Assembly (NCBI GenBank): GCA_964016885.1
Contig: OZ024741.1
Span: 414,532,001 to 414,596,000, forward strand
Direction of reading: 5' to 3'
Origin: Eledone cirrhosa
Taxonomy: Eukaryota
DNA length: 64,000 nucleotides
Shown here: positions 22,474 through 64,000 of the stretch, in pieces
How positions within the stretch are numbered: position 1 is the first letter of the stretch
How the letters are laid out: each line of letters begins with the position of its first letter
Translations under genes and position numbers: made by a program
The notes under the pieces: generated by a model
Databases searched by the model: none
Seen by the model: the letters and a program-made list of their open reading frames with translations, nothing else
Told to the model about the DNA's origin: nothing

Positions 22474-22485
22474 CTGCAAGTATAC

Positions 22486-22563
22486 ATCATAGTCATCATT
22501 ATCACCATCATCACTATGATGATTATCATCAACATCATTATAATCACCATCACCATCATCATT
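22486..22563. repeat. Degenerate (CAT)n trinucleotide repeat
   Basis: CATCATAGTCATCATTATCACCATCATCAC...; it explains the poly-His in the 22308 ORF. Confidence 0.9.
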
Positions 22564-22653
22564 CAACTCCTGATTTCCCTGCAGCAAAGGTTAAACAGGT
22601 CAGCAACCAACCAGGTCAGTACTTCAGCAGAGCCAATGACCTCAAAGATGGGC

Positions 22654-25600
22654 CGGAGACATACATCACACATACATTGGTCTGACACTCTACCGAGTAT
22701 AAGACACCAGGAGACCTACATCACACATACATTGGTCTGACACTCTACCGAGTATAAGACACCAGGAGACCTACATCACATACATTGGTCTGACACTCTA
22801 CCGAGTATAAGACACCAGGAGACCTACATCACACATACATTGGTCTGACACTCTACCGAGTATAAGACACCTGGAGTCCTACATCACACATATACTTGGT
22901 AGAGTGTCAGACCAAAGTAAGACACCAGGAGACCTACATCACACATACATTGGTCTGATACTCTACCGAGTATAAAACACCAGCAGACCTACAACACACA
23001 TACATTGGTCTGACACTCTACAGAGTATAAGACACCAGGTGACCTACATCACACATACTTTGGTCTTACACTCTACCGAGTATAAGACACCAGGAGACCT
23101 ACATCACACATACTTTGGTCTTACACTCTACCGAGTATAAGACACCAGGAGACCTACATCACACATACTTTGATCTGACACTCTACCAAGTATAAGACAC
23201 CAGGAGACCTACATCACACATACATTGGTCTGATACTCTACCGAGTATAAAACACCAGCAGACCTACAACACACATACATTGGTCTGACACTCTACCGAG
23301 TATAAGACACCAGGAGACCTACATCACACATACTTTCATCTGACACTCTACAGAGTATAAGACACCAGGAGAGCTACATCACACGTACTTTGGTCTGACA
23401 CTCTACCGAGTATAAGACACCAAGAGACCTACATCACACGTACTTTGGTCTGACACTCTACCGAGTATAAGACACCGGGAGACGTACATCACACGTATTT
23501 TGCTCTGACACTCTACCGAGTATAAGACACCAGGTGACGTACATCACACGTACTTTGGTCTGACACTCTACCGAGTATAAGACACCAGGAGACCTACATC
23601 ACACATACTTTGATCTGACACTCTACCGAGTATAAGACACCATGAGACCTACATCACACGTACTTTGGTCTGACACTCTACCGAGTATAAGACACCAAGA
23701 GACCTACATCAAACGTACTTTGGTCTGACACTCTACCGAATATAAGACACCAGGAGACCTACATCACACATACTTTGGTCTTACACTCTACCGAGTATAA
23801 GACACCAGGAGACCTACATCACACGTACTTTGGTCTGACACTCTACCGAGTATAAGACACCAGGAGACCTACATCGCACATACATAGGTCTGACACTCTA
23901 CCGAGTATAAGACACCAGAAGACCTACATCACACATACATAGGTCTGACACTCTACCGAGTATAAGACACCAGGAGACCTACATCACACGTACTGTGGTC
24001 TCACACTCTACTAGTATAAGACACCAGGAGACCTACATCACACGTACTTTGGTCTGACACTCTACCGAGTATAAGACACCAGGAGACCTACATCACGCGT
24101 ACTTTGGTCTGACACTCTACCGAGTATAAGAATACCAGGAGACCTACATCACACGTACTTTGGTCTGACACTCTACCCAGTATAAGACACCAGGAGACCT
24201 ACATCACACATACTTTGGTCTGACACTCTACCGAGTATAAGACACCAGGAGACCTACATCACGCATACTTTGGTCTGACACTCTACCGCGTATAAGACAC
24301 CAGGAGACCTACATCACACGTACTTTGGTCTGACACTCTACCAAGTATAAGACACCAGGAGACCTACATCACACATACTTTGGTCTGACACTCTACCGAG
24401 TATAACACAGCAGGAGACCTACATCACACATACTTTGGTCTCACACTCTACCGAGTATAACACACGAGGAGACCTACATCGCACATACTTTGGTCTGACA
24501 CTCTACCAAGTATAACACACCAGGAGACCTACATCACACATACTTTGGTCTGACACTCTACCGAGTATAACACACCAGGAGCCCTACAGCACACATACTT
24601 TGGTCTCACACTCTACCGAGTATAACACACCAGGAGACCTACATCGCACATACTTTGGTCTGACACTCTACCGATTATAAGACACCAGGAGACCTACATA
24701 AACACATACATAGGTTTAACACACTACTGAGTATAAGACACCAGGAGACCTACATCACACATACATAGGTCTGACACTCTACCGAGTATAAGACACCAGG
24801 AGACCTACATCACACATACATAGGTCAGACACTCTACCGAGTATAAGACACCAGGAGACCTACATCACACGTACTTTGGTCTCACACTCTACCGAGTATA
24901 AGACACCAGGAGACCTACATCACACATACTTTGGTCTGACACTCTACCGACTATAAGACACTAGGAGACCTATATCACACGTACTTTGGTCTGACACTCT
25001 ACCGAGTATAAGACACCAGGAGACCTACAGCACACATACTTTGATCTGACACTCTACCGAGTATAAGACACCAGGAGACCTACATCACACGTACTTTGGT
25101 CTGACACTCTACCGAGTATAACACACCAGGAGACCTACATCACACATACATAGATCTGACACTCTACCGCGTATAAGACACCAGGAGACCTACATCACAC
25201 GTACTTTGGTCTGACACTCTACCGAGTATAACACACCAGGAGACCTACATCACACATACATAGATCTGACACTCTACCGCGTATAAGACACCAGGAGACC
25301 TACATCACACGTAATTTGGTCCGACACTCTACCCAGTATAAGACACCGGGAGACCTACATCACACGTACTTTGGTCTGACACTCTACCCAGTATAAGACA
25401 CCGGGAGACCTACATCACACGTACTTTGGTCTGACACTCTACCGAGTATAAGACACCAGTAGTCCTACATCACACGTACTTTGGTCTGACACTCTACCGA
25501 GTATAAGACGCCAGGAGACCTACATCACACATACATAGGTTTAACACTCTACCGAGTATAAGACACCAGGAGACCTACATCACACATACGTAGGTTTAAC

Positions 25601-28600
25601 ACTCTACTGAGTATAAGACACCAGGAGACCTACATCACACATACTTTGGTCTGACATTCTACCGAGTATAAGACACCAGGAGACCTACATAACACATACT
25701 TTGGTCTGACACTCTACCGAGTATAAGACACCAGGAGACCTACATCACACGTACTTTGGTCTTACACTCTACCGAGTATAAGACACCAGGAGGCCTACAT
25801 CACACGTACTTTGGTCTGACACTCTACCGAATATAAGACACCAGGAGACCTACATCACACGTACTTTGGTCTGACACTCTACCGAGTATAAGACACCAGG
25901 AGACCTACATCACACATACTTTGGTCTTATACTCTACCAAGTATAAGACACCAGGAGACCTACATCACACATACATAGGTCTGACACTCTACCGAGTATA
26001 AGACACCAGGAGACCTACATCACACGTACTTTGGTCTTACACTCTACCGAGTATAAGACAGCGGGAGGCCTACATCACACGTACTTTCGTCTGACACTCT
26101 ACCGAATATAAGACACCAGGAGACCTACATCACACGTACTTTGGTCTCACACTCTACCGAGTATAAGACACCAGGAGACCTACATCACACATACTTTGGT
26201 CTTACACTCTACTGAGTATAAGACACCGGGAGACCTACATCACACATACTTTGGTCTGACACTTTACCGAGTATAAGACACCAGGAGACCTACATCACAC
26301 GTACTTTGGTCTCACACTCTACCAAGTATAAGACACCAGGAGACCTACATCACACGTACTTTGGTCTGACACTCTACAGAGTATAAGACACCAGGAGACC
26401 TACATCACATGTACTTTGGTCTGACACTCTACCAAGTATAAGCCACCAGGAGACCTACATCACACATACTTTGGTCTGACACTCTACCGAGTATAACACA
26501 CCAGGAGACCTACAGCACACATACTTTGGTCTCACACTCTACTGAGTATAACACACGAGGAGACCTACATCGCACATATTTGGTATGACACTCTACCGAG
26601 TATAACACACCAGGAGACCTACATCACACATACTTTGGTCTGACACTCTACCGAGTATAACACACCAGGAGACCTACAGCACACATACTTTGGTCTCACA
26701 CTCTACTGAGTATAACACACGAGGAGACCTACATCGCACATACTTTGGTATGACACTCTACCGAGTATAACACACCAGGAGAACTACATCACACATACTT
26801 TGGTCTGACACTCTACCGAGTATAACACACCAGGAGACCTACAGCACACACACTTTGGTCTCACACTCTACTGAGTATAACACACGAGGAGACCTACATC
26901 GCACATACTTTGGTATGACACTCTACCGAGTATAACACACCAGGAGAACTACATCACACATACTTTGGTCGGACACTCTACCGAGTATAACACACCAGGA
27001 GACCTACAGCACACACACTTTGGTCTCACACTCTACCGAGTATAACACACCAGGAGACCTACATCGCACATACTTTGGTCTGACACTCTACCGACTATAA
27101 GACACTAGGAGACCTACATCACACGTACTTTGGTCTGACACTCTACCGAGTATAAGACACCAGGAGACCTACAGCACACATACTTTGATCTGACACTCTA
27201 CCGAGTATAAGACACCAGGAGACCTACATCACACGTACTTTGGTCTGACACTCTACCGAGTATAACACACCAGGAGACCTACATCACACATACATAGATC
27301 TGACACTCTACCGCGTATAAGACACCAGGAGACCTACATCACACGTACTTTGGTCTGACACTCTACAGAGTATAAGACACCAGGAGACCTACATCACACG
27401 TACTTTGGTCTGACACTCTACAGAGTATAAGACACCAGGAGACCTACATCACACATACATTGGTCTTACACTCTACCGAGTATAAGACACCAGGAGACCT
27501 ACATCACACATACTTTGGTCTTACACTCTACCAAGTATAAGACACCAGGAGACCTACATCACACATACTTTGGTCTGACACTCTACCGAGTATAAGACAC
27601 CAGGAGACCTACATCACACATACATAGATCTGACACTCTACCGCGTATAAGACACCAGGAGACCTACATCACACGTACTTTGGTCTGACACTCTACCGAG
27701 TATAAGACACCAGGAGACCTACATCACACGTACTTTGGTCTGACACTCTACCGAGTATAAGACACCAGGAGACCTACATCACACGTACTTTGGTCTTACA
27801 CTCTACCGAGTATAAGACACCAGGAGGCCTACATCACACGTACTTTGGTCTTACACTCTACCGAGTATAAGACACCAGGAGACCTACATCACACATACAT
27901 AGGTTTAACACTCTACCGAGTATAAGACATCAGGAGACCTACATCACACATACATAGGTTTAACACTCTACTGAGTATAAGACACCAGGAGACCTACATC
28001 ACACATACTTTGGTCTGACACTCTACCGAGTATAAGACACCAGGAGACCTACATCACACATACTTTGGTCTGACACTCTACCGAGTATAAGACACCAGGA
28101 GACCTACATCACACGTACTTTGGTCTTACACTCTACCGAGTATAAGACACCAGGAGGCCTACATCACACGTACTTTGGTCTGACACTCTACCGAATATAA
28201 GACACCCGGAGACCTACATCACACGTACTTTGGTCTGACACTCTACCGAGTATAAGACACCAGGAGACCTACATCACACGTACTTTGGTCTGACACTCTA
28301 CCGAGTATAAGACACCAGGAGACCTACATCACATGTACTTTGGTCTGACACTCTACCAAGTATAAGCCACCAGGAGACCTACATCACACATACTTTGGTC
28401 TGACACTTTACCGAGTATAAGACACCAGGAGACCTACATCACACATACTTTGGTCTGAGACTCTACCGACTATAAGACACTAGGAGACCTACATCACACG
28501 TACTTTGGTCTGACACTCTACCGAGTATAAGACACCAGGAGACCTACATCACACGTACTTTGGTCTGACACTCTACCAAGTATAGCACACCAGGAGACCT

Positions 28601-31600
28601 ACAGCACACATACTTTGGTCTGACACTCTACCAAGTATAAGACACCAGGAGACCTACATCACACATACTTTGGTCTGACACTCTACCGAGTATAACACAC
28701 CTGGAGACCTACATCACACATACTTTGGTCTGACACTCTACCGAGTATAACACACCAGGAGACCTACAGCACACATACTTTGGTCTCACACTCTACTGAG
28801 TATAACACACGAGGAGACCTACATCGCACATACTTTGGTCTGACACTCTACCAAGTATAAGACACCAGGAGACCTACATCAGACGTACTTTGGTCTGACA
28901 CTCTACCGAGTATAACACACCAGGAGACCTACATCACACATACTTTGGTCTGACACTCTACCGAGTATAACACACCAGGAGACCTACATCACACATACTT
29001 TGGTCTGACACTCTACCAAGTATAACACACCAGGAGACCTACAGCACACATACTTTGGTCTGACACTCTACCAAGTATAAGACACCAGGAGACCTACATC
29101 ACACATACTTTGGTCTGACACTCTACCGAGTATAACACACCAGGAGACCTACATCACACATACTTTGGTCTGACACTCTACCGAGTATAACACACCAGGA
29201 GACCTACAGCACACATACTTTGGTCTCACACTCTACTGAGTATAACACACGAGGAGACCTACATCGCACATACTTTGGTCTGACACTCTACCGAGTATAA
29301 CACACCAGGAGAACTACATCACACATACTTTGGTCTGACACTCTACCGAGTATAACACACCAGGAGACCTACAGCACACATACTTTGGTCTCACACTCTA
29401 CCGAGTATAACACACCAGGAGACCTACATCGCACATACTTTGGTCTGACACTCTACCTATTATAAGACACCAGGAGACCTACATAAACACATACATAGGT
29501 TTAACACACTACTGAGTATAAGACACCAGGAGACCTACATCACACATACATAGGTCTGACACTCTACGGAGTATAAGACACCAGGAGACCTACATCACAC
29601 ATACATAGGTCTGACACTCTACCGAGTATAAGACAACAGGAGACCTACATCACACGTACTTTGGTCTCACACTCTACCGAGTATAAGACACCAGCAGACC
29701 TACATCACACATACTTTGGTCTGACACTCTACCGACTATAAGACACTAGGAGACCTACATCACACGTACTTTGGTCTGACACTCTACCGAGTATAAGACA
29801 CCAGGAGACCTACAGCACACATACTTTGATGTGACACTCTACCGAGTATAAGACACCAGGAGACCTACATCACACGTACTTTGGTCTGACACTCTACCGA
29901 GTATAACACACCAGGAGACCTACATCACACATACATAGATCTGACACTCTACCGCGTATAAGACACCAGGAGACCTACATCACACGTACTTTGGTCTGAC
30001 ACTCTACCGAGTATAAGACACCAGGAGACCTACATCACACGTACTTTGGTCTGACACTCTACCCAGTATAAGACACCGGGAGACCTACATCACACGTACT
30101 TTGGTCTGACACTCTACCGAGTATAAGACACCAGGAGACCTACATCACACGTACTTTGGTCTGACACTCTACCGAATATAAGACACCAGGAGACCTACAT
30201 CACACATACTTTGGTCTTACACTCTACCGAGTATAAGACACCATGAGACCTACATCACACATACTTTGGTCTTACACTCTACCAAGTATAAGACACCAGG
30301 AGACCTACATCACACATACTTTGGTCTGACACTCTACCGAGTATAAGACACCAGGAGACCTACATCACACATACTTTGGTCTTACACTCTACCGAGTATA
30401 AGACACCATGAGACCTACATCACACATACTTTGGTCTGACACTCTACCGCGTATAAGACACCAGGAGACCTACATCACACGTACTTTGGTCTGACACTCT
30501 ACCGAGTATAAGACACCAGGAGACCTACATCACACGTACTTTGGTCTGACACTCTACCCAGTATAAGACACCGGGAGACCTACATCACATGTACTTTGGG
30601 CTGACACTCTACCGAGTATAAGACACCAGGAGACCTACATCACACGTACTTTGGTCTGACACTCTACCGAGTATAAGACACCAGGAGACCTACATCACAC
30701 ATACATAGGTTTAACACTCTACCGAGTATAAGACACCAGGAGACCTACATCACACATACATAGGTTTAACACTCTACTGAGTATAAGACACCAGGAGACC
30801 TACATCACACATACTTTGGTCTGACACTCTACCGAGTATAAGACACCAGGAGACCTACATCACACATACTTTGGTCTGACACTCTACCGAGTATAAGACA
30901 CCAGGAAACCTACATCACACGTACTTTGGTCTTACACTCTACCGAGTATAAGACACCAGGAGGCCTACATCACACGTACTTTGGTCTGACACTCTACCGA
31001 ATATAAGACACCAGGAGACCTACATCACACGTACTTTGGTCTGACACTCTACCGAGTATAAGACACCAGGAGACCTACATCACACGTACTTTGGTCTGAC
31101 ACTCTACCGAGTATAAGACACCAGGAGACCTACATCACATGTACTTTGGTCTGACACTCTACCAAGTATAAGCCACCAGGAGACCTACATCACACATACT
31201 TTGGTCTGACACTTTACCGAGTATAAGACACCAGGAGACCTACATCACACATACTTTGGTCTGACACTCTACCGACTATAAGACGCTAGGAGACCTACAT
31301 CACACGTACTTTGGTCTGACACTCTACCGAGTATAAGACACCAGGAGACCTACATCACACGTACTTTGGTCTGAAACTCTACCAAGTATAAGCCACCAGG
31401 AGACCTACATCACACATACTTTGGTCTGACACTTTACCGAGTATAAGACACCAGGAGACCTACATCACACGTACTTTGGTCTCACACTCTACCAAGTATA
31501 AGACACCAGGAGACCTACAGCACACATACTTTGGTCTCACACCCTACCGAAAATAAGACACCAGGAGACCTACATCACACATACTTTGGTCTTACACTCT

Positions 31601-34600
31601 ACCGAGTATAAGACACCAGGAGACCTACATCACACATACTTTGGTCTTACACTCTACCAAGTATAAGACACCAGGAGACCTACATCACACATACTTTGGT
31701 CTGACACTCTACCGAGTATAAGACACCATGAGGCCTACATCACACATACATAGATCTGACACTCTACCGCGTATAAGACACCAGGAGATCTACATCACAC
31801 GTACTTTGGTCTGACACTCTACCGAGTATAAGACACCAGGAGACCTACATCACACTTACTTTGGTCTGACACTCTACCCAGTATAAGACACCGGGAGACC
31901 TACATCACACGTACTTTGGTCTGACACTCTACCGAGTATAAGACACCAGGAGACCTACATCACACGTACTTTGGTCTGACACTCTACCGAGTATAAGACA
32001 CCAGGAGCCCTACATCACACATACATAGGTTTAACACTCTACCGAGTATAAGACATCAGGAGACCTACATCACACATACATAGGTTTAACACTCTACTGA
32101 GTATAAGACACCAGGAGACCTACATCACACATACTTTGGTCTGACACTCTACCGAGTATAAGACACCAGGAGAGCTACATCACACATACTTTGGTCTGAC
32201 ACTCTACCGAGTATAAGACACCAGGAGACCTACATCACACGTACTTTGGTCTGACACTCTACCGAGTATAAGACACCAGGAGGCCTACATCACACGTACT
32301 TTGGTCTGACACTCTACCGAATATAAGACACCAGGAGACCTACATCACACGTACTTTGGTCTGACACTCTACCGAGTATAAGACACCAGGAGACCTACAT
32401 CACACGTACTTTGGTCTGACACTCTACCGAGTCTAAGACACCAGGAGACCTACATCACACATACATAGGTTTAACACTCTACCGAGTATAAGACATCAGG
32501 AGACCTACATCACACATACATAGGTTTAACACTCTACTGAGTATAAGACACCAGGAGACCTACATCACACATACTTTGGTCTGACACTCTACCGAGTATA
32601 AGACACCAGGAGACCTACATCACACATACTTTGGTCTGACACTCTACCGAGTATAAGACACCAGGAGACCTACATCACACGTACTTTGGTCTTACACTCT
32701 ACCGAGTATAAGACACCAGGAGGCCTACATCACACGTACTTTGGTCTGACACTCTACCGAATATAAGACACCCGGAGACCTACATCACACGTACTTTGGT
32801 CTGACACTCTACCGAGTATAAGACACCAGGAGACCTACATCACACGTACTTTGGTCTGACACTCTACCGAGTATAAGACACCAGGAGACCTACATCACAT
32901 GTACTTTGGTCTGACACTCTACCAAGTATAAGCCACCAGGAGACCTACATCACACATACTTTGGTCTGACACTTTACCGAGTATAAGACACCAGGAGATC
33001 TACATCACACATACTTTGGTCTGACACTCTACCGACTATAAGACACTAGGAGACCTACATCACACGTACTTTGGTCTGACACTCTACCGAGTATAAGACA
33101 CCAGGAGACCTACATCACACGTACTTTGGTCTGACACTCTACCAAGTATAACACACCAGGAGACCTACAGCACACATACTTTGGTCTGACACTCTACCAA
33201 GTATAAGACACCAGTAGACCTACATCACACATACTTTGGTCTGACACTCTACCGAGTATAACACACCAGGAGACCTACATCACACATACTTTGGTCTGAC
33301 ACTCTACCGAGTATAACACACCAGGAGACCTACAGCACACATACTTTGGTCTCACACTCTACTGAGTATAACACACGAGGAGACCTACATCGCACATACT
33401 TTGGTCTGACACTCTACCAAGTATAAGACACCAGGAGACCTACATCAGACGTACTTTGGTCTGACACTCTACCGAGTATAAGACACCAGCAGACCTACAT
33501 CACACATACTTTGGTCTGACACTCTACCGAGTATAACACACCAGGAGACCTACATCACACATACTTTGGTCTGACACTCTACCAAGTATAACACACCAGG
33601 AGACCTACAGCACACATACTTTGGTCTGACACTCTACCAAGTATAAGACACCAGGAGACCTACATCACACATACTTTGGTCTGACACTCTACCGAGTATA
33701 ACACACCAGGAGACCTACATCACACATACTTTGGTCTGACACTCTACCGAGTATAACACACCAGGAGACCTACAGCACACATACTTTGGTCTCACACTCT
33801 ACTGAGTATAACACACGAGGAGACCTACATCGCACATACTTTGGTCTGACACTCTACCGAGTATAACACACCAGGAGAACTACATCACACATACTTTGGT
33901 CTGACACTCTACCGAGTATAACACACCAGGAGACCTACAGCACACATACTTTGGTCTCACACTCTACCGAGTATAACACACCAGGAGACCTACATCGCAC
34001 ATACTTTGGTCTGACACTCTACCTATTATAAGACACCAGGAGACCTACATAAACACATACATAGGTTTAACACACTACTGAGTATAAGTCACCAGGAGAC
34101 CTACATCACACATACATAGGTCTGACACTCTACGGAGTATAAGACACCAGGAGACCTACATCACACATACATAGGTCTGACACTCTACCGAGTATAAGAC
34201 ACCAGGAGACCTACATCACACCTACTTTGGTCTCACACTCTACCGAGTATAAGACACCAGCAGACCTACATCACACATACTTTGGTCTGACACTCTACCG
34301 ACTATAAGACACTAGGAGACCTACATCACACGTACTTTGGTCTGACACTCTACCGAGTATAAGACACCAGGAGACCTACAGCACACATACTTTGATGTGA
34401 CACTCTACCGAGTATAAGACACCAGGAGACCTACATCACACGTACTTTGGTCTGACACTCTACCGAGTATAACACACCAGGAGACCTACATCACACATAC
34501 ATAGATCTGACACTCTACCGCGTATAAGACACCAGGAGACCTACATCACACGTACTTTGGTCTGACACTCTACCGAGTATAAGACACCAGGAGACCTACA

Positions 34601-37600
34601 TCACACGTACTTTGGTCTGACACTCTACCCAGTATAAGACACCGGGAGACCTACATCACACGTACTTTGGTCTGACACTCTACCGAGTATAAGACACCAG
34701 GAGACCTACATCACACGTACTTTGGTCTGACACTCTACCGAATATAAGACACCAGGAGACCTACATCACACATACTTTGGTCTTACACTCTACCAAGTAT
34801 AAGACACCAGGAGACCTACATCACACATACTTTGGTCTGACACTCTACCGAGTATAAGACACCAGGAGACCTACATCACACATACATAGATCTGACACTC
34901 TACCGCGTATAAGACAACAGGAGACCTACATCACACGTACTTTGGTCTGACACTCTACCGAGTATAAGACACCAGGAGACCTACATCACACGTACTTTGG
35001 TCTGACACTCTACCCAGTATAAGACACCGGGAGACCTACATCACACGTACTTTGGGCTGACACTCTACCGAGTATAAGACACCAGGAGACCTACATCACA
35101 CGTACTTTGGTCTGACACTCTACCGAGTATAAGACACCAGGAGACCTACATCACACATACATAGGTTTAACACTCTACCGAGTATAAGACACCAGGAGAC
35201 CTACATCACACATACATAGGTTTAACACTCTACTGAGTATAAGACACCAGGAGACCTACATCACACATACTTTGGTCTGACACTCTACCGAGTATAAGAC
35301 ACCAGGAGACCTACATCACACATACTTTGGTCTGACACTCTACCGAGTATAAGACACCAGGAGACCTACATCACACATACTTTGGTCTGACACTCTACCG
35401 ACTATAAGACACTAGGAGACCTACATCACACGTACTTTGGTCTGACACTCTACCGAGTATAAGACACCAGGAGACCTACATCACACGTACTTTGGTCTGA
35501 CACTCTACCAAGTATAAGCCACCAGGAGACCTACATCACACATACTTTGGTCTGACACTTTACCGAGTATAAGACACCAGGAGACCTACATCACACGTAC
35601 TTTGGTCTCACACTCTACCAAGTATAAGACACCAGGAGACCTACAGCACACATACTTTGGTCTCACACCCTACCGAATATAAGACACCAGGAGACCTACA
35701 TCACACATACTTTGGTCTTACACTCTACCGAGTATAAGACACCAGGAGACCTACATCACACATACTTTGGTCTTACACTCTACCAAGTATAAGACACCAG
35801 GAGACCTACATCACACATACTTTGGTCTGACACTCTACCGAGTATAAGACACCAGGAGACCTACATCACACATACATAGATCTGACACTCTACCGCGTAT
35901 AAGACACCAGGAGACCTACATCACACGTACTTTGGTCTGACACTCTACCGAGTATAAGACACCAGGAGACCTACATCACACGTACTTTGGTCTGACACTC
36001 TACCCAGTATAAGACACCGGGAGACCTACATCACACGTACTTTGGTCTGACACTCTACCGAGTATAAGACACCAGGAGACCTACATCACACGTACTTTGG
36101 TCTGACACTCTACCGAGTATAAGACACCAGGAGCCCTACATCACACATACATAGGTTTAACACTCTACCGAGTATAAGACATCAGGAGACCTACATCACA
36201 CATACATAGGTTTAACACTCTACTGAGTATAAGACACCAGGAGACCTACATCACACATACTTTGGTCTGACACTCTACCGAGTATAAGACACCAGGAGAG
36301 CTACATTACACATACTTTGGTCTGACACTCTACCGAGTATAAGACACCAGGAGACCTACATCACACGTACTTTGGTCTTACACTCTACCGAGTATAAGAC
36401 ACCAGGAGGCCTACATCACACGTACTTTGGTCTGACACTCTACCGAATATAAGACACCAGGAGACCTACATCACACGTACTTTGGTCTGACACTCTACCG
36501 AGTATAAGACACCAGGAGACCTACATCACACGTACTTTGGTCTGACACTCTACCGAGTATAAGACACCAGGAGACCTACATCACATGTACTTTGGTCTGA
36601 CACTCTACCAAGTATAAGCCAGCAGGAGACCTACATCACACATACTTTGGTCTGACACTCTACCAAGTATAACACACCAGGAGACCTACAGCACACATAC
36701 TTTGGTCTGACACTCTACCAAGTATAAGACACCAGGAGACCTACATCACACATACTTTGGTCTGACACTCTACCGAGTATAACACACCAGGAGACCTACA
36801 TCACACATACTTTGGTCTGACACTCTACCAAGTATAAGACACCAGGAGACCTACATCACACATACTTTGGTCTGACACTCTACCGAGTATAACACACCAG
36901 GAGACCTACATCACACATACTTTGGTCTGACACTCTACCGAGTATAACACACCAGGAGACCTACAGCACACATACTTTGGTCTCACACTCTACCGAGTAT
37001 AACACACCAGGAGACCTACATCGCACATACTTTGGTCTGACACTCTACCTATTTATAAGACACCAGGAGACCTACATAAACACAAACATAAGTTTAACAC
37101 ACTACTGAGTATAAGACACCAGGAGACCTACATCACACATACATAGGTCTGGCACTCTACCGAGTATAAGACACCAGGAGACCTACATCACACATACATA
37201 GGTCTGACACTCTACCGAGTATAAGACACCAGGAGACCTACATCACACGTACTTTGGTCTCACACTCTACCGAGTATAAGACACCAGGAGACCTACATCA
37301 CACATACTTTGGTCTGACACTCTACCGACTATAAGACACTAGGAGACCTACATCACACGTACTTTGGTCTGACACTCTACCGAGTATAAGACACCAGGAG
37401 ACCTACAGCACACATACTTTGGTCTGACACTCTCCCGAGTATAAGACACCAGGAGACCTACATCACACGTACTTTGGTCTGACACTCTACCGAGTATAAC
37501 ACACCAGGAGACCTACATCACACATACATAGATCTGACACTCTACCGCGTATAAGACACCAGGAGACCTACATCACACGTACTTTGGTCTGACACTCTAC

Positions 37601-49600: not shown

Positions 49601-52600
49601 GAGACCTACATCACACATACTTTGGTCTGACACTCTACCGAGTATAAGACACCAGGAGACCTACATCACACGTACTTTGGTCTGACACTCTACCGAGTAT
49701 AGGTCAACAGGAGACCTACATCACACATACATAGGTTTAACACTCTACCGAGTATAAGACACCAGGAGACCTACATCACACATACATAGGTTTAACACTC
49801 TACTGAGTATAAGACACCAGGAGACCTACATCACACATACTTTGGTCTGACACTCTACCGAGTATAAGACACCAGGAGACCTACATCACACATACTTTGG
49901 TCTGACACTCTACCGAGTATAAGACACCAGGAGACCTACATCACACGTAGTTTGGTCTTACACTCTACCGAGTATAAGACACCAGGGGGCCTACATCACA
50001 CGTACTTTGGTCTGACACTCTACCGAATATAAGACACCAGGAGACCTACATCAGACGTACTTTGGTCTGACACTACCGAGTATAAGACACCAGAAGACCT
50101 ACATCACACGTACTTTGGTCTGACACTCTACTGAGTATAAGACACCAGGAGACCTACATCACATGTACTTTGGTCTGACACTCTACCAAGTTTAAGCCAC
50201 CAGGAGACCTACATCACACATACTTTGGTCTGACACTTTACCGAGTATAAGACACCAGGAGACCTACATCACACATACTTTGGTCTGACACTCTACCGAC
50301 TATAAGACACCAGGAGACCTACATCACACGTACTTTGGTCTGACACTCTACCGAGTATAAGACACCAGGAGACCTACATCACACGTACTTTGGTCTGACA
50401 CTCTACCGAGTATAAGACACCAGGAGACCTACATCACACGTACTTTGGTCTGACACTCTACCCAGTATAAGACACCGGGAGACCTACATCACACGTACTT
50501 TGGTCTGACACTCTACCGAGTATAAGACACCAGGAGACCTACATGACACGTAATTTGGTCTGACACTCTACCGAGTATAAGACACCAGGAGACCTACATC
50601 ACACTTACTTTGGTCTGACACTCTACCGAGTATAAGACACCAGGAGACCTTCATCACACATACTTTGGTCTGACACTCTACCGAGTATAACACACCAGGA
50701 GACCTACATCACACATACTTTGGTCTGACACTCTACCAAGTATAACACACAAGGAGACCTACAGCACACATACTTTGGTCTGACACTCTACCAAGTATAA
50801 GACACCAGGAGACATACATCACACATACTTTGGTCTGACACTCTACCGAGTATAACACACCAGGAGACCTACATCACACATACTTTGGTCTCACACTCTA
50901 CTGAGTATAACACACGAGGAGACCTACATCACACATACTTTGGTCTGACACTCTACCGAGTATAACACACCAGGAGAACTACATCACACATACTTTGGTC
51001 TGACACTCTACCGAGTATAACACACCAGGAGACCTACATCACACATACATAGATCTGACACTCTACCGCGTATAAGACACCAGGAGACCTACATCACACG
51101 TACTTTGGTGTGACACTCTACCGAGTATAAGACACCAGGAGACCTACATCACACGTACTTTGGTCTGACGCTCTACCGAGTATAAGACACCAGGAGAACT
51201 ACATCACACATACTTTGGTCTGACACTCTACCGAGTATAACACACCAGGAGACCTACATCACACATACATAGATCTGACACTCTACCGCGTATAAGACAC
51301 CAGGAGACCTACATCACACGTACTTTGGTGTGACACTCTACCGAGTATAAGACACCAGGAGACCTACATCACACGTACTTTGGTCTCACACTCTACCGAG
51401 TATAAGACACCAGGAGACCTACAGCACACATACTTTGATCTGACACTCTACCGAGTATAAGACACCAGGAGACCTACATCACACGTACTTTGGTCTGACA
51501 CTCTTCCGCGTATAAGACACCAGGAGACCTACATCACACGTACTTTGGTCTGACACTCTACCGAGTATAAGACACCAGGAGACCTACATCACACGTACTT
51601 TGGTCTGACACTCTACCCAGTATAAGACACCGGGAGACCTACATCACACGTACTTTGGTCTGACACTCTACCGAGTATAAGACACCAGGAGACCTACATC
51701 ACACGTACTTTGGTCTGACACTCTACCAAGTATAAGACACCAGGAGACCTACATCACACATACATAGGTTTAACACTCTACCGAGTATAAGACACCAGGA
51801 GACCTACATCACACATACATAGGTTTAACACTCTACTGAGTATAAGACACCAGGAGACCTACATCACACATACTTTGGTCTGACACTCTACCGAGTATAA
51901 GACACCAGGAGAACTACATCACACATACTTTGGTCTGACACTCTACCGAGTATAAGACACCAGGAGACCTACATCACACGTACTTTGGTCTTACACTCTA
52001 CCGAGTATAAGACACCAGGAGGCCTACATCACACGTACTTTGGTCTGACACTCTACCGAATATAAGACACCAGGAGACCTACATCACACGTACTTTGGTC
52101 TGACACTCTACCGAGTATAAGACACCAGGAGACCTACATCACACGTACTTTGGTCTGACACTCTACCGAGTATAAGACACCAGGAGACCTACATCACATG
52201 TACTTTGGTCTGACACTCTACCGAGTATAAGACACCAGGAGACCTACATCACACGTACTTTGGTCTGACACTCTACCGAGTATAGGTCAACAGGAGACCT
52301 ACATCACACATACATAGGTTTAACACTCTACCGAGTATAACACACCAGGAGACCTACAGCACACATACTTTGGTCTCACACTCTACTGAGTATAACACAC
52401 GAGGAGACCTACATCGCACATACTTTGGTCTGACACTCTACCGAGTATAACACACCAGGAGAACTACATCACACATACTTTGGTCTGACACTCTACCGAG
52501 TATAACACACCAGGAGACCTACAGCACACATACTTTGATCTGACAGTCTACCGAGTATAAGACACCAGGAGACCTACATCACACGTACTTTGGTCTGACA

Positions 52601-55600
52601 CTCTACCGAGTATAACACACCAGGAGACCTACATCACACATACATAGATCTGACACTCTACCGCGTATAAGACACCAGGAGACCTACATCACACGTACTT
52701 TGGTCTGACACTCTACCGAGTATAAGACACCAGGAGACCAACATCACACGTACTTTGGTCTGACACTCTACCCAGTATAAGACACCGGGAGACCTACATC
52801 ACACATACTTTGGTCTGACACTCTACCGAGTATAAGACACCAGGAGACCTACATCACACGTACTTTGGTCTGACACTCTACCGAGTATAGGTCAACAGGA
52901 GACCTACATCACACATACATAGGTTTAACACTCTACCGAGTATAAGACACCAGGAGACCTACATCACACATACATAGGTTTAACACTCTACTGAGTATAA
53001 GACACCAGGAGACCTACATCACACATACTTTGGTCTGACACTCTACCGAGTATAAGACACCAGGAGACCTACATCACACATACTTTGGTCTGACACTCTA
53101 CCGAGTATAAGACACCAGGAGACCTACATCACACGTACTTTGGTCTTACACTCTACCGAGTATAAGACACCAGGGGGCCTACATCACACGTACTTTGGTC
53201 TGACACTCTACCGAATATAAGACACCAGGAGACCTACATCAGACGTACTTTGGTCTGACACTACCGAGTATAAGACACCAGGAGACCTACATCACACGTA
53301 CTTTGGTCTGACACTCTACCGAGTATAAGACACCAGGAGACCTACATCACATGTACTTTGGTCTGCCACTCTACCAAGTATAAGCCACCAGGAGACCTAC
53401 ATCACACATACTTTGGTCTGACACTTTACCGAGTATAAGACACCAGGAGACCTACATCACACGTACTTTGGTCTGACACTTTACCGAGTATAAGACACCA
53501 GGAGACCTACATCACACGTACTTTGGTCTGACACTCTACCGAGTATAAGACACCAGGAGACCTACATCACACGTACTTTGGTCTGACACTCTACCCAGTA
53601 TAAGACACCGGGAGACCTACATCACACGTACTTTGGTCTGACACTCTACCGAGTATAAGACACCAGGAGACCTACATGACACGTAATTTGGTCTGACACT
53701 CTACCGAGTATAAGACACCAGGAGTCCTACATCACACTTACTTTGGTCTGACACTCTACCGAGTATAAGACACCAGGAGACCTACATCACACATACTTTG
53801 GTCTGACACTCTACCGAGTATAACACACCAGGAGACCTACATCACACATACTTTGGTCTGACACTCTACCAAGTATAACACACCAGGAGACCTACAGCAC
53901 ACATACTTTGGTCTGACACTCTACCAAGTATAAGACACCAGGAGACATACATCACACATACTTTGGTCTGACACTCTACCGAGTATAACACACCAGGAGA
54001 CCTACATCACACATACTTTGGTCTGACACTCTACCGAGTATAACACACCAGGAGACCTACAGCACACATACTTTGGTCTCACACTCTACTGAGTATAACA
54101 CACGAGGAGACCTACATCACACATACTTTGGTCTGACACTCTACCGAGTATAACACACCAGGAGAACTACATCACACATACTTTGGTCTGACACTCTACC
54201 GAGTATAACACACCAGGAGACCTACATCACACATACATAGATCTGACACTCTACCGCGTATAAGACACCAGGAGACCTACATCACACGTACTTTGGTGTG
54301 ACACTCTACCGAGTATAAGACACCAGGAGACCTACATCACACGTACTTTGGTCTGACGCTCTACCGAGTATAAGACACCAGGAGACCTACATCACACATA
54401 CATAGGTCTGACACTCTACCGAGTATAAGACACCAGGAGACCTACATCACACGTACTTTGGTCTCACACTCTACCGAGTATAAGACACCAGGAGACCTAC
54501 AGCACACATACTTTGGTCTTACACTCTACCGAGTATAAGACACCAGGAGGCCTACATCACACGTACTTTGGTCTGACACTCTACCGAATATAAGACACCA
54601 GGAGACCTACATCACACGTACTTTGGTCTGACACTCTACCGAGTATAAGACACCAGGAGACCTACATCACACGTACTTTGGTCTGACACTCTACCGAGTA
54701 TAAGACACCAGGAGACCTACATCACATGTACTTTGGTCTGACCCTCTACCGAGTATAAGACACCAGGAGACCTACATCACACGTACTTTGGTCTGACACT
54801 CTACCGAGTATAGGTCAACAGGAGACCTACATCACACATACATAGGTTTAACACTCTACCGAGTATAACACACCAGGAGACCTACAGCACACATACTTTG
54901 GTCTCACACTCTACTGAGTATAACACACGAGGAGACCTACATCGCACATACTTTGGTCTGACACTCTACCGAGTATAACACACCAGGAGAACTACATCAC
55001 ACATACTTTGGTCTGACACTCTACCGAGTATAACACACCAGGAGACCTACAGCACACATACTTTGATCTGACACTTTACCGAGTATAAGACACCAGGAGA
55101 CCTACATCACACGTACTTTGGTCTTACACTCTACCGAGTATAAGACACCAGGGGGCCTACATCACACGTACTTTGGTCTGACACTCTACCGAATATAAGA
55201 CACCAGGAGACCTACATCAGACGTACTTTGGTCTGACACTACCGAGTATAAGACACCAGGAGACCTACATCACACGTACTTTGGTCTGACACTCTACCGA
55301 GTATAAGACACCAGGAGACCTACATCACACGTACTTTGGTCTGACACTCTACCCAGTATAAGACACCGGGAGACCTACATCACACGTACTTTGGTCTGAC
55401 ACTCTACCGAGTATAAGACACCAGGAGACCTACATGACACGTAATTTGGTCTGACACTCTACCGAGTATAAGACACCAGGAGACCTACATCACACTTACT
55501 TTGGTCTGACACTCTACCGAGTATAAGACACCAGGAGACCTACATCACACATACTTTGGTCTGACACTCTACCGAGTATAACACACCAGGAGACCTACAT

Positions 55601-58600
55601 CACACATACTTTGGTCTGACACTCTACCAAGTATAACACACCAGGAGACCTACAGCACACATACTTTGGTCTGACACTCTACCAAGTATAAGACACCAGG
55701 AGACATACATCACACATACTTTGGTCTGACACTCTACCGAGTATAACACACCAGGAGACCTACATCACACATACTTTGGTCTGACACTCTACCGAGTATA
55801 ACACACCAGGAGACCTACAGCACACATACTTTGGTCTCACACTCTACTGAGTATAACACACGAGGAGACCTACATCACACATACTTTGGTCTGACACTCT
55901 ACCGAGTATAACACACCAGGAGAACTACATCACACATACTTTGGTCTGACACTCTACCGAGTATAACACACCAGGAGACCTACATCACACATACATAGAT
56001 CTGACACTCTACCGCGTATAAGACACCAGGAGACCTACATCACACGTACTTTGGTCTGACGCTCTACCGAGTATAAGACACCAGGAGACCTACATCACAC
56101 ATACATAGGTCTGACACTCTACCGAGTATAAGACACCAGGAGACCTACATCACACGTACTTTGGTCTCACACTCTACCGAGTATAAGACACCAGGAGACC
56201 TACAGCACACATACTTTGATCTGACACTCTACCGAGTATAAGACACCAGGAGACCTACATCACACGTACTTTGGTCTGACACTCTACCGCGTATAAGACA
56301 CCAGGAGACCTACATCACACGTACTTTGGTCTGACACTCTACCGAGTATAAGACACCAGGAGACCTACATCACACGTACTTTGGTCTGACACTCTACCCA
56401 GTATAAGACACCGGGAGACCTACATCACACGTACTTTGGTCTGACACTCTACCGAGTATAAGACACCAGGAGACCTACATCACACGTACTTTGGTCTGAC
56501 ACTCTACCAAGTATAAGACACCAGGAGACCTACATCACACATACATAGGTTTAACACTCTACCGAGTATAAGACACCAGGAGACCTACATCACACATACA
56601 TAGGTTTAACACTCTACTGAGTATAAGACACCAGGAGACCTACATCACACATACTTTGGTCTGACACTCTACCGAGTATAAGACACCAGGAGACCTACAT
56701 CACACATACTTTGGTCTGACACTCTACCGAGTATAAGACACCAGGAGAACTACATCACACGTACTTTGGTCTTACACTCTACCGAGTATAAGACACCAGG
56801 AGGCCTACATCACACGTACTTTGGTCTGACACTCTACCGAATATAAGACACCAGGAGACCTACATCACACGTACTTTGGTCTGACACTCTACCGAGTATA
56901 AGACACCAGGAGACCTACATCACACGTACTTTGGTCTGACACTCTACCGAGTATAAGACACCAGGAGACCTACATCACATGTACTTTGGTCTGACACTCT
57001 ACCAAGTATAAGCCACCAGGAGACCTACATCACACATACTTTGGTCTGACACTTTACCGAGTATAAGACACCAGGAGACCTACATCACACATACATAGGT
57101 CTGACACTCTACCGAGTATAAGACACCAGGAGACCTACATCACACATACATAGGTCTGACACTCTACCGAGTATAAGACACCAGGAGACCTACAGCACAC
57201 ATACTTTGGTCTCACACCCTACCGAATATAAGACGCCAGGAGACCTACATCACACATACTTTGGTCTTACACTCTACCGAGTATAAGACACCAGGAGACC
57301 TACATCACACATACTTTGGTCTTACACTCTACCAAGTATAAGACACCAGGAGACCTACATCACACATACTTTGGTCTGACACTCTACCGAGTATAAGACA
57401 CCAGGAGACCTACATCACACATACATAGGTTTAACACTCTACCGAGTATAAGACACCAGGAGACCTACATCACACATATATAGGTTTAACACTCTACTGA
57501 GTATAAGACACCGGGAGACCTACATCACACGTACTTTGGTCTGACACTCTACCGAGTATAAGACACCAGGAGACCTACATCACACGTACTTTGGTCTGAC
57601 ACTCTACCGAGTATAAGACACCAGGAGACCTACATCACACATACATAGGTTTAACACTCTACCGAGTATAAGACACCAGGAGACCTACAGCACACATACT
57701 TTGGTCTTACACTCTACCGAGTATAAGACACCAGGAGGCCTACATCACACGTACTTTGGTCTGACACTCTACCGAATATAAGACACCAGGAGACCTACAT
57801 CACACGTACTTTGGTCTGACACTCTACCGAGTATAAGACACCAGGAGACCTACATCACACGTACTTTGATCTGACAGTCTACCGAGTATAAGACACCAGG
57901 AGACCTACATCACACGTACTTTGGTCTGACACTCTACCGAGTATAACACACCAGGAGACCTACATCACACATACATAGATCTGACACTCTACCGCGTATA
58001 AGACACCAGGAGACTTACATCACACGTACTTTGGTCTGACACTCTACCGAGTATAAGACACCAGGAGACCAACATCACACGTACTTTGGTCTGACACTCT
58101 ACCCAGTATAAGACACCGGGAGACCTACATCACACATACTTTGGTCTGACACTCTACCGAGTATAAGACACCAGGAGACCTACATCACACGTAGTTTGGT
58201 CTGACACTCTACCGAGTATAGGTCAACAGGAGACCTACATCACACATACATAGGTTTAACACTCTACCGAGTATAAGACACCAGGAGACCTACATCACAC
58301 ATACATAGGTTTAACACTCTACTGAGTATAAGACACCAGGAGACCTACATCACACATACTTTGGTCTGACACTCTACCGAGTATAAGACACCAGGAGACC
58401 TACATCACACATACTTTGGTCTGACACTCTACCGAGTATAAGACACCAGGAGACCTACATCACACGTACTTTGGTCTTACACTCTACCGAGTATAAGACA
58501 CCAGGGGGCCTACATCACACGTACTTTGGTCTGACACTCTACCGAATATAAGACACCAGGAGACCTACATCAGACGTACTTTGGTCTGACACTACCGAGT

Positions 58601-61600
58601 ATAAGACACCAGGAGACCTACATCACACGTACTTTGGTCTGACACTCTACCGAGTATAAGACACCAGGAGACCTACATCACATGTACTTTGGTCTGACAC
58701 TCTACCAAGTATAAGCCACCAGGAGACCTACATCACACATACTTTGGTCTGACACTTTACCGAGTATAAGACACCAGGAGACCTACATCACACATACTTT
58801 GGTCTGACACTCTACCGACTATAAGACACTAGGAGACCTACATCACACGTACTTTGGTCTGACACTCTACCGAGTATAAGACACCAGGAGACCTACATCA
58901 CACGTACTTTGGTCTGACACTCTACCGAGTATAAGACACCAGGAGACCTACATCACACATACTTTGGTCTGACACTCTACCCAGTATAAGACACCGGGAG
59001 ACCTACATCACACGTACTTTGGTCTGACACTCTACCGAGTATAAGACACCAGGAGACCTACATGACACGTAATTTGGTCTGACACTCTACCGAGTATAAG
59101 ACACCAGGAGACCTACATCACACTTACTTTGGTCTGACACTCTACCGAGTATAAGACACCAGGAGACCTACATCACACATACTTTGGTCTGACACTCTAC
59201 CGAGTATAACACACCAGGAGACCTACATCACACATACTTTGGTCTGACACTCTACCAAGTATAACACACCAGGAGACCTACAGCACACATACTTTGGTCT
59301 GACACTCTACCAAGTATAAGACACCAGGAGACATACATCACACATACTTTGGTCTGACACTCTACCGAGTATAACACACCAGGAGACCTACATCACACAT
59401 ACTTTGGTCTGACACTCTACCGAGTATAACACACCAGGAGACCTACAGCACACATACTTTGGTCTCACACTCTACTGAGTATAACACACGAGGAGACCTA
59501 CATCACACATACTTTGGTCTGACACTCTACCGAGTATAACACACCAGGAGAACTACATCACACATACTTTGGTCTGACACTCTACCGAGTATAACACACC
59601 AGGAGACCTACATCACACATACATAGATCTGACACTCTACCGCGTATAAGACACCAGGAGACCTACATCACACGTACTTTGGTGTGACACTCTACCGAGT
59701 ATAAGACACCAGGAGACCTACATCACACGTACTTTGGTCTGACGCTCTACCGAGTATAAGACACCAGGAGACCTACATCACACATACATAGGTCTGACAC
59801 TCTACCGAGTATAAGACACCAGGAGACCTACGTCACACGTACTTTGGTCTCACACTCTACCGAGTATAAGACACCAGGAGACCTACAGCACACATACTTT
59901 GATCTGACACTCTACCGAGTATAAGACACCAGGAGACCTACATCACACGTACTTTGGTCTGACACTCTACCGCGTATAAGACACCAGGAGACCTACATCA
60001 CACGTACTTTGGTCTGACACTCTACCGAGTATAAGACACCAGGAGACCTACATCACACGTACTTTGGTCTGACACTCTACCCAGTATAAGACACCGGGAG
60101 ACCTACATCACACGTACTTTGGTCTGACACTCTACCGAGTATAAGACACCAGGAGACCTACATCACACATACATAGGTCTGACACTCTACCGAGTATAAG
60201 ACACCAGGAGACCTACATCACACATACATAGGTCTGACACTCTACCGAGTATAAGACACCAGGAGACCTACAGCACACATACTTTGGTCTCACACCCTAC
60301 CGAATATAAGACGCCAGGAGACCTACATCACACATACTTTGGTCTTACACTCTACCGAGTATAAGACACCAGGAGACCTACATCACACATACTTTGGTCT
60401 TACACTCTACCAAGTATAAGACACCAGGAGACCTACATCACACATACTTTGGTCTGACACTCTACCGAGTATAAGACACCAGGAGACCTACATCACACAT
60501 ACATAGGTTTAGCACTCTACCGAGTATAAGACACCAGGAGACCTACATCACACATATATAGGTTTAACACTCTACTGAGTATAAGACACCGGGAGACCTA
60601 CATCACACGTACTTTGGTCTGACACTCTACCGAGTATAAGACACCAGGAGACCTACATCACACGTACTTTGGTCTGACACTCTACCGAGTATAAGACACC
60701 AGGAGACCTACATCACACATACATAGGTTTAACACTCTACCGAGTATAAGACACCAGGAGACCTACATCACACATACATAAGTTTAACACTCTACTGAGT
60801 ATAAGACACCAGGAGACCTACATCACACATACTTTGGTCTGACACTCTACCGAGTATAAGACACCAGGAGACCTACATCACACATACTTTGGTCTGACAC
60901 TCTACCGAGTATAAGACACCAGGAGACCTACATCACACGTACTTTGGTCTTACACTCTACCGAGTATAAGACACCAGGTGGCCTACATCACACGTACTTT
61001 GGTCTGACACTCTACCGAGTATAAGACACCAGGAGACCTACATCACACGTACTTTGGTCTGACACTCTACCGAGTATAAGACACCAGGAGACCTACATCA
61101 CATGTACTTTGGTCTGACACTCTACCAAGTATAAGCCACCAGGAGACCTACATCACACATACTTTGGTCTGACACTTTACCGAGTATAAGACACCAGGAG
61201 ACCTACATCACACGTACTTTGGTCTCACACTCTACCAAGTATAAGACACCAGGAGACCTACATCACACATACTTTGGTCTTACACTCTACCGAGTATAAG
61301 ACACCAGGAGACCTACATCACACATACTTTGGTCTTACACTCTACCAAGTATAAGACACCAGGAGACCTACATCACACATACTTTGGTCTGACACTCTAC
61401 CGAGTATAAGACACCAGGAGACCTACATCACACATACATAGATCTGACACTCTACCGCGTATAAGACACCAGGAGACCTACATCACACGTACTTTGGTCT
61501 GACACTCTACCGAGTATAAGACACCAGGAGACCTACATCACACGTACTTTGGTCTGACACTCTACCCAGTATAAGACACCGGGAGACCTACATCACACGT

Positions 61601-64000
61601 ACTTTGGGCTGACACTCTACCGAGTATAAGACACCAGGAGACCTACATCACACGTACTTTGGTCTGACACTCTACCGAATATAAGACACCAGGAGACCTA
61701 CATCACACGTACTTTGGTCTGACACTCTACCGAGTATAAGACACCAGGAGACCTACATCACACGTACTTTGGTCTGACACTCTACCGAGTATAAGACACC
61801 AGGAGACCTACATCACATGTACTTTGGTCTGACCCTCTACCGAGTATAAGACACCAGGAGACCTACATCACACGTACTTTGGTCTGACACTCTACCGAGT
61901 ATAGGTCAACAGGAGACCTACATCACACATACATAGGTTTAACACTCTACCGAGTATAACACACCAGGAGACCTACAGCACACATACTTTGGTCTCGCAC
62001 TCTACTGAGTATAACACACGAGGAGACCTACATCGCACATACTTTGGTCTAACACTCTACCGAGTATAACACACCAGGAGAACTACATCACACATACTTT
62101 GGTCTGACACTCTACCGAGTATAACACACCAGGAGACCTACAGCACACATACTTTGATCTGACAGTCTACCGAGTATAAGACACCAGGAGACCTACATCA
62201 CACGTACTTTGGTCTGACACTCTACCGAGTATAACACACCAGGAGACCTACATCACACATACATAGATCTGACACTCTACCGCGTATAAGACACCAGGAG
62301 ACCTACATCACACGTACTTTGGTCTGACACTCTACCGAGTATAAGACACCAGGAGACCAACATCACACGTACTTTGGTCTGACACTCTACCCAGTATAAG
62401 ACACCGGGAGACCTACATCACACATACTTTGGTCTGACACTCTACCGAGTATAAGACACCAGGAGACCTACATCACACGTACTTTGGTCTGACACTCTAC
62501 CGAGTATAGGTCAACAGGAGACCTACATCACACATACATAGGTTTAACACTCTACCGAGTATAAGACACCAGGAGACCTACATCACACATACATAGGTTT
62601 AACACTCTACTGAGTATAAGACACCAGGAGACCTACATCACACATACTTTGGTCTGACACTCTACCGAGTATAAGACACCAGGAGACCTACATCACACAT
62701 ACTTTGGTCTGACACTCTACCGAGTATAAGACACCAAGAGACCTACATCACACGTACTTTGGTCTTACACTCTACCGAGTATAAGACACCAGGGGGCCTA
62801 CATCACACGTACTTTGGTCTGACACTCTACCGAATATAAGACACCAGGAGACCTACATCAGACGTACTTTGGTCTGACACTACCGAGTATAAGACACCAG
62901 GAGACCTACATCACACGTACTTTGGTCTGACACTCTACCGAGTATAAGACACCAGGAGACCTACATCACATGTACTTTGGTCTGACACTCTACCAAGTAT
63001 AAGCCACCAGGAGACCTACATCACACATACTTTGGTCTGACACTCTACCGAGTATAAGACACCAGGAGACCTACATCACACGTACTTTGGTCTTACACTC
63101 TACCGAGTATAAGACACCAGGGGGCCTACATCACACGTACTTTGGTCTGACACTCTACCGAATATAAGACACCAGGAGACCTACATCAGACGTACTTTGG
63201 TCTGACACTACCGAGTATAAGACACCAGGAGACCTACATCACACGTACTTTGGTCTGACACTCTACCGAGTATAAGACACCAGGAGACCTACATCACATG
63301 TACTTTGGTCTGACACTCTACCAAGTATAAGCCACCAGGAGACCTACATCACACATACTTTGGTCTGACACTTTACCGAGTATAAGACACCAGGAGACCT
63401 ACATCACACATACTTTGGTCTGACACTCTACCGACTATAAGACACTAGGAGACCTACATCACACGTACGTTGGTCTGACACTCTACCGAGTATAAGACAC
63501 CAGGAGACCTACATCACACGTACTTTGGTCTGACACTCTACCGAGTATAAGACACCAGGAGACCTACATCACACGTACTTTGGTCTGACACTCTACCCAG
63601 TATAAGACACCGGGAGACCTACATCACACGTACTTTGGTCTGACACTCTACCGAGTATAAGACACCAGGAGACCTACATGACACGTAATTTGGTCTGACA
63701 CTCTACCGAGTATAAGACACCAGGAGACCTACATCACACTTACTTTGGTCTGACACTCTACCGAGTATAAGACACCAGGAGACCTACATCACACATACTT
63801 TGGTCTGACACTCTACCGAGTATAACACACCAGGAGACCTACATCACACATACTTTGGTCTGACACTCTACCAAGTATAACACACCAGGAGACCTACAGC
63901 ACACATACTTTGGTCTGACACTCTACCAAGTATAAGACACCAGGAGACATACATCACACATACTTTGGTCTGACACTCTACCGAGTATAACACACCAGGA
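22654..64000. repeat. 55-bp tandem satellite, ~750 copies, continues beyond the right edge
   Basis: Consensus CAGGAGACCTACATCACAC(A/G)TACTTTGGTCTGACACTCTACCGAGTATAAGACAC head-to-tail (e.g. starts at 22708 and 22763), with many recurrent variant monomers. Confidence 0.99.

Follow-up and report, generated by a model that had tools for sequence, protein, structure and literature searches.

Gene structure of UNC-79 and its giant intron

The window analyzed here is a 64,000-nt stretch of the Eledone cirrhosa genome, positions 414532001 to 414596000 of scaffold C2 (OZ024741.1; 416,293,306 nt) in a 3.0-Gb assembly, 1.7 Mb from the scaffold end. On its minus strand lie two coding exons of an UNC-79 gene and the 3' part of a giant intron, coding intron 4, which is made almost entirely of one 55-bp satellite array. 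For sites beyond the window we use extended positions, i.e., the C2 coordinate minus 414,532,000. The features around the acceptor of intron 4 are as follows.

22387..22473, minus strand: UNC-79 coding exon 5, 87 nt, phase 1/1, Octopus vulgaris residues 159-187
22474..64000, minus strand: 3' part of UNC-79 coding intron 4, GT..AG, phase 1
22485..22562, plus strand: (CAT)n microsatellite directly upstream of the acceptor (Tandem Repeats Finder)
22563..22654, no strand: non-tandem spacer between the array and (CAT)n, with no UNC-79 exon by tblastn
22655..64000 in the window (Tandem Repeats Finder: 752 copies, 93% matches) and on to extended 293078, plus strand: 55-bp satellite array

An earlier note on this stretch had read the DNA upstream of the 87-nt exon as a short spacer, (CAT)n, and 55-bp satellite, and Tandem Repeats Finder returned the same elements.

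UNC-79 is a subunit of the NALCN-FAM155-UNC79-UNC80 channel complex, in which NALCN is the sodium-leak channel. The 87-nt exon alone, used as a query, found no match in Pfam or PDB; the identity of the host gene comes from exon 7, which ends intron 6 at extended -37670. This exon matches UNC-79 in PDB entries 7w7g, 7wji, and 7sx3 (E 8e-7) and Pfam family PF14776 (E 1.3e-12), and its identity to mollusc UNC-79 reaches 90%. The PF14776 domain and the collinear similarity to known UNC-79 proteins place the gene in the UNC-79 family. A genome-wide search with snail UNC-79 gave 16 matches, a floor owing to a stricter first look; all 16 fall at this locus, collinear and on the minus strand, and the search found no second UNC-79 copy.

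Tblastn with UNC-79 proteins placed the 87-nt exon at O. vulgaris residues 159 to 187 (90% match) and the preceding residues 102 to 159 at extended 294003-293833. The latter, exon 4, is the upstream partner that the earlier note had predicted; it lies 271 kb off, and the unique sequence at 22564-22653, the other place considered for it, gave no tblastn match. Counting from the start-codon exon at extended 302656, the 87-nt exon is the fifth coding exon and the giant intron is coding intron 4. Exon 5 is preceded by AG, is followed by a GTAAGT donor, and is open in the phase-1 frame only. Spliced together, exons 2 to 9 give 316 codons with no stop and no alignment gap, of which 308 residues are identical in O. 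vulgaris, 311 in O. bimaculoides, 282 in cuttlefish, and 238 in the clam Mercenaria; omitting the 87-nt exon from this join leaves a 29-residue gap. The gap-free protein join indicates that no exon is missing inside the 55-bp array.

Altogether, 26 exons were mapped across 646,352 nt, with GT..AG ends in all 25 introns. Their splicing yields 1,165 codons with zero stops and, relative to O. vulgaris, 1,143 identical residues, 21 that differ, and a single gap (98% over 1,164 residues). Coding sequence takes up 3,496 of the 646,352 nt (0.54%), and the median intron is 3,709 nt. Exon 26 (extended -343648 to about -343692), whose end was placed by hand, is about 45 nt long and may account for the 15 residues by which O. 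vulgaris isoforms of 2,398 and 2,383 residues differ.

Intron 4 as a whole measures 271,359 nt (extended 293832-22474; C2:414825832-414554474), 6.5 times the portion that the window contains, from which the note had proposed a giant intron of more than 41 kb made almost entirely of one satellite. The 55-bp array accounts for 99.66% of it (270,424 nt). The intron begins with GTAAGT and ends with GCAG in phase 1/1, and residues 158 and 159 join without a gap relative to the Octopus, cuttlefish, and clam proteins; by its GT..AG ends, matched phase, and gap-free protein join, it would be a U2 spliceosomal intron. Its acceptor, behind (CAT)n, has 10 pyrimidines in 20 positions, the lowest count among the 25 mapped introns.

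Composition and probable in-place growth of the 55-bp array

The array comprises 4,917 monomers (4,800 of 55 nt, the others of 53 to 58 nt) belonging to 673 distinct types, with a mean pairwise divergence of 6.8%, and contains no N or insertion through extended 293078. A hidden exon or insertion was looked for and rejected: none of the 4,917 monomer starts scored low, and every monomer frame has stops. The satellite is private to the UNC-79 intron 4 locus. All 1,832 exact genome-wide matches of a 39-nt probe fall inside the array, as do 4,713 of the 4,719 that a 21-nt probe gives with up to two mismatches.

How did so large an array arise from one short unit? An origin of the monomer from nearby DNA found no backing beyond 17-nt matches (E 0.99), and a fixed higher-order repeat was likewise rejected (the highest global lag identity was 0.07, the median 0.03). 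The duplications are local, at lags of about 80 to 340 monomers, and the longest identical run spans 89 monomers, about 4.9 kb. When the array is cut into blocks of 350 monomers (19 kb), up to 82% of the monomer-order strings are common to neighboring blocks, compared to 0 to 5% for blocks five or more apart. This fading of similarity with distance suggests in-place growth by unequal exchange.

Other introns and chromosomal setting

Satellite DNA is not limited to intron 4. The remaining features of the window, and the other large introns and arrays of the gene, are listed here.

18919..22386, minus strand: intron 5, 3,468 nt, containing minisatellites of 61 bp and 17 bp plus a fragment resembling a long interspersed nuclear element (LINE)
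18863..18918, minus strand: UNC-79 coding exon 6, 56 nt, residues 188-206
1..18862, minus strand: 5' part of intron 6; the whole intron is 56,532 nt, 96.8% tandem repeat, and ends at exon 7
1..14089 in the window (extended -37184 to 14089; 51,274 nt), plus strand: 39-bp satellite array inside intron 6
Intron 9: 109,563 nt, with 97 kb of a 43-mer
Intron 14: 34,277 nt, with 28 kb of an 8-mer-type repeat
Intron 22: 35,313 nt, with 29 kb of a 42-mer
Intron 24: 15,886 nt, with 14.5 kb of a 23-mer
Stretch beyond exon 26: 49-kb array of a 49-mer

The 39-bp array, which according to the earlier note the downstream side of the 87-nt exon may include, lies in intron 6 and not in the intron directly after this exon, as exon 6 intervenes. 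Size and repeat content do not always go together: intron 17 measures 50,639 nt yet is just 11% tandem.

Downstream of the gene, a scaffold gap of 200 N (C2:414072381-414072580; extended -459619 to -459420) begins 115,724 nt after exon 26 and adjoins a 1.8-kb (AT)n run; the C2 scaffold end consists of about 3 kb of (TA)n, not telomere repeats. The satellite-rich piece is thus bounded by AT runs on both sides. Tandem DNA makes up 83% of the 646-kb mapped span, compared to 18% of 140 kb past the gap. In the distal 1.45 Mb of C2, 18 of 20 samples are at least 98% tandem (periods of 59, 44, 46, 58, 21, and 2); elsewhere along C2, one in 20 samples of 4 kb is tandem throughout, as are three of 20 samples taken within the initial 1.5 Mb of ten scaffolds (periods of 75, 42, and 37). 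This sampling suggests that large arrays are a feature of the genome that is denser near scaffold ends, with UNC-79 inside such a zone, and other genes may carry such arrays as well. A wholly tandem sample of a 16-mer in mid-C2 (C2:260000001-260004000) places large arrays far from scaffold ends too. Four scaffolds measure 443, 416, 379, and 379 Mb, compared to 135 Mb or less for the others sampled (scaffolds C1 to C6), which suggests chromosome fusions behind the four very large ones.

Upstream of UNC-79 (C2:414857588-416293306) lie a 59-mer array of about 98 kb, a 46-mer, a 58-mer at two places, and 20 kb of a 45-mer, and sampling of the same region detected a 44-mer over more than 240 kb and a 21-mer across about 480 kb. 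Of 418 open reading frames listed upstream of the gene, 103 selected by length were scanned for other genes and gave seven Pfam matches, all of retroelement type, in a scan that could miss short exons; the non-satellite islands examined there hold retroelement open reading frames only. LINE copies at L156:1539-4785 (plus strand) and L151:3717-5197 (minus strand) have endonuclease and reverse transcriptase, with a PHD finger after the reverse transcriptase domain.

Three smaller repeats within the gene are worth recording. The 61-bp minisatellite unit is common to introns 5 (19766-21111) and 20 (extended -266408 to -263905), indicating that some of the small arrays, in contrast to the private 55-mer, are members of a dispersed family. 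The LINE-like fragment of intron 5 (19420-19680, plus strand) is broken, with one internal stop and no Pfam match; from its translation we take it to be a reverse transcriptase tail, and its short-read depth of 300,000 to 590,000 indicates a very common repeat. Intron 10 contains a degenerate telomere-like (AACCCT)n repeat of about 410 nt (extended -150047 to -149637).

Splicing and transcription signals

A transcript of intron 4 would have to be completed across 270 kb of a single repeat. Neither AATAAA nor ATTAAA occurs in the 55-bp array on either strand, whereas intron 17 has 94 such signals in 51 kb, meaning that nothing obvious would terminate transcription within the array; such an absence is expected by chance for one short monomer. 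Other arrays do carry poly(A) signals on the sense strand (200 in the 49-mer and 33 in the 43-mer).

On its sense strand, the array contains 3,695 acceptor-like and 3,542 donor-like decoy sites, the latter at 16 per kb compared to 1.9 per kb in intron 17. The ten commonest decoy pairings would yield either a piece of 14 nt that shifts the frame or pieces of 69 to 344 nt that contain stops. The commonest decoy acceptor has GG directly before TAG, while the true acceptor has TTG before CAG and is followed 87 nt on by a GTAAGT donor, so that exon definition would be the likely selector.

Donor-like 9-mers in ten intronic arrays are enriched on the sense strand in two, on the antisense strand in two, and on neither in six. 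This lack of a consistent strand argues against selection on monomer sequence. Selection for U1-like sites or against sense-strand poly(A) signals was considered for these ten intronic and two upstream arrays, and no pattern emerged.

Interpretation and alternative explanations

These observations are probably explained by a functional UNC-79 gene that carries a tolerated, neutrally grown array in its intron 4. Unequal exchange or slippage would have multiplied a 55-bp piece of intronic DNA within a scaffold end rich in satellites, and the presence of a different repeat in each large intron suggests that such growth was tolerated, not selected. RNA polymerase II (Pol II) elongates at about 1 to 4 kb/min, at which rate it would read across the array in about 1 to 4.5 h; transcription of the monomers by Pol II, as proposed in the earlier note, would be expected from the intact gene structure. 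Exon 5 is predicted to be chosen by exon definition and exon 4 then joined to it, and transcripts that took up decoy pseudo-exons (14-nt frameshifting or stop-containing) would be cleared by nonsense-mediated decay.

Three groups of observations weigh against this explanation. First, the commonest decoy acceptor has 14 pyrimidines in 20 positions and 2,500 copies, compared to 10 in 20 at the true acceptor, and with so weak a true site among such dense decoys, accurate one-step splicing is not obvious. Second, no short-read contig among the matches listed bridges the far array junction (293078), and the short-read sample is possibly the assembled sample itself. Third, the part of UNC-79 past residue 1165 was not found genome-wide by any of three queries (0 of 36, 0 of 11, and 0 of 32 candidates), one of which began with a stricter first look and none of which had its own positive control; nor did the snail UNC-79 query match the genome with its 3' part.

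In a variant of the same explanation, intron 4 is removed piecewise by recursive or stepwise splicing through AG/GT or donor-like sites in the monomers. Nearly every monomer has a TAG/GT on the sense strand (4,510 sites), and the high density of donor-like 9-mers noted above would also suit this route. However, the pyrimidine tracts before TAG/GT are poor (7 to 10 in 20), the regenerated donor GTCTCC is weak, and the strand of donor-like sites is inconsistent among the ten arrays. We regard piecewise removal as unlikely.

A second variant holds that selection keeps the array as a transcription timer or a dosage dial for the NALCN leak current. For Drosophila, a timer role of giant introns is speculated on in PMC6508613, and UNC-79 is by homology a neuronal channel subunit. 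Against this stand the unrelated repeats of the large introns, arrays equally large outside the coding span, and the absence of a common motif or strand bias, and selection of this kind seems distinctly unlikely.

Could the intron be real but its length an artifact, with the array expanded, collapsed, or joined from two? Tandem arrays are hard to assemble. The three short-read runs used here behave as genomic DNA from one sample; the matches listed contain no splice joint, which is without bearing on expression. A 403-nt contig runs from exon 5 across the spacer and 46 nt into the array with no mismatch in all three runs, leaving one junction only that was seen bridged. Summed short-read depth on one monomer is 66,000 to 83,000, compared to about 6 to 7 for single-copy contigs (runs X1 and X3), a ratio of about 10,000 that is twice the assembled monomer count and of the same order, although the tool warns that such depth is no copy number. 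This ratio could favor a misjudged length, yet it also implies thousands of copies and not a small array. The intron has no N, 673 monomer types, and no identical run beyond 4.9 kb; the flanking exons are correct in order, strand, and phase; and the satellite occurs nowhere else from which it could be misjoined. The in-place duplication structure, with block similarity that decays with distance, further argues against a collapsed or inflated assembly. Misassembly, raised in the note as a possible undoing of the giant intron, finds no support in the bridged junction and the duplication structure, and we hold an artifact of length to be very improbable.

Another question is the fate of the 3' half of the gene. 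Residues 1 to 1165 of a full-length protein of about 2,400 were mapped, and no match to UNC-79 past residue 1165 occurs in 256 kb downstream (116 kb to the gap and 140 kb beyond). The O. bimaculoides UNC-79 model stops near residue 1150, while O. vulgaris and cuttlefish both have the complete protein. Over 1,145 aligned amino acid sites, this genome has 15 private residues, O. bimaculoides 11, and O. vulgaris 5, which is no clear sign of decay. The simplest reading would be that the 3' half is unassembled. A truncated, dying gene reduced to its 5' half, in which satellites grew since it was no longer transcribed, would account for the missing 3' exons and for the highest count of private sites, but this is the least credible of the alternatives, given 26 exons in frame with GT..AG kept in 25 of 25 introns, cuttlefish agreement with both Octopus proteins at no more than 5 of these 15 sites, the single copy returned by the snail query, the 200-N gap and 1.8-kb (AT)n run directly downstream, and the break of the O. 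bimaculoides model at about the same residue.

Beyond a functional UNC-79 with a tolerated array, a more far-reaching idea has a small but real chance of being right: genes near scaffold ends in this genome might routinely carry giant introns, each with its own private satellite, that neurons transcribe, as a somatic and probably autosomal counterpart of the Drosophila Y loops, and the fast-changing length of the 270-kb array might set the timing or amount of UNC-79 and hence the sodium leak.

Comparison with known systems

The textbook cases of satellite-filled introns are those of the Drosophila Y chromosome; here, every monomer of such an intron is resolved, and the host is a conserved neuronal gene. 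Whether a polymerase crosses 270 kb of one repeat, whether the array length matters, and how the spliceosome passes some 3,500 decoy donor/acceptor pairs to find a weak true acceptor can now be asked directly, and the private 55-mer is a ready single-locus probe for RNA fluorescence in situ hybridization. There is also a warning for annotation: introns of this kind can break gene models in octopuses, and in O. bimaculoides the UNC-79 model ends at about the residue after which the gene is lost here.

A search of literature listings, mostly outside the subscription journals, turned up no account of giant introns filled with satellite DNA in cephalopods and none that treats UNC79 and octopus together; gene tables in supplements may bear on this point. 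The word satellite is absent from the main text of four papers (10.1101/2023.05.16.540928, PMC13652810, PMC9068888, and PMC13218726). For Octopus minor, PMC6279123 gives a mean intron of 5.4 kb and 14.7% simple repeats.

In amino acid sequence, the gene resembles known UNC-79: it keeps the 98% identity to O. vulgaris and a gapless order across the giant intron. It differs in that only its first half is present in this assembly. Among the intronic variable-number tandem repeats of human neuronal genes, the 30-bp array in CACNA1C is likewise a locus-private, minisatellite-type array within an ion-channel gene intron; that array is about 10 times shorter and makes up a minor part of its intron. 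Giant vertebrate neuronal and muscle genes of the dystrophin type, as described in PMC6508621, share with UNC-79 very large introns in a conserved excitable-cell gene, but their introns are mixed repeat-rich DNA, unlike the single uninterrupted tandem array of UNC-79 intron 4.

The closest parallel is that drawn in the earlier note, with the Drosophila Y-linked genes kl-3 and kl-5. Their introns are transcribed and consist of megabases of simple satellite making up more than 99% of the loci (PMC6508621), and the two genes are spliced cotranscriptionally (PMC11207136). UNC-79 likewise combines small exons, satellite introns of hundreds of kilobases, and a locus that is more than 99% noncoding, and intron 4, at 271,359 nt and 99.66% satellite, is gigantic in the same sense. 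The parallel therefore holds for size and make-up but not for gene type and repeat type. kl-3 and kl-5 are Y-linked axonemal genes with 5-bp satellites, lampbrush-like loops in spermatocytes, a requirement for Blanks/Heph, and demonstrated transcription, whereas UNC-79 is a conserved neuronal gene, known here from DNA sequence, with 271 kb of a private 55-bp monomer in place of simple satellites like (AATAT)n, whose units measure about 5 bp, and with a different repeat in each intron. Overall, UNC-79 intron 4 would extend Drosophila-type intron gigantism to a conserved neuronal gene and calls for no new mechanism.

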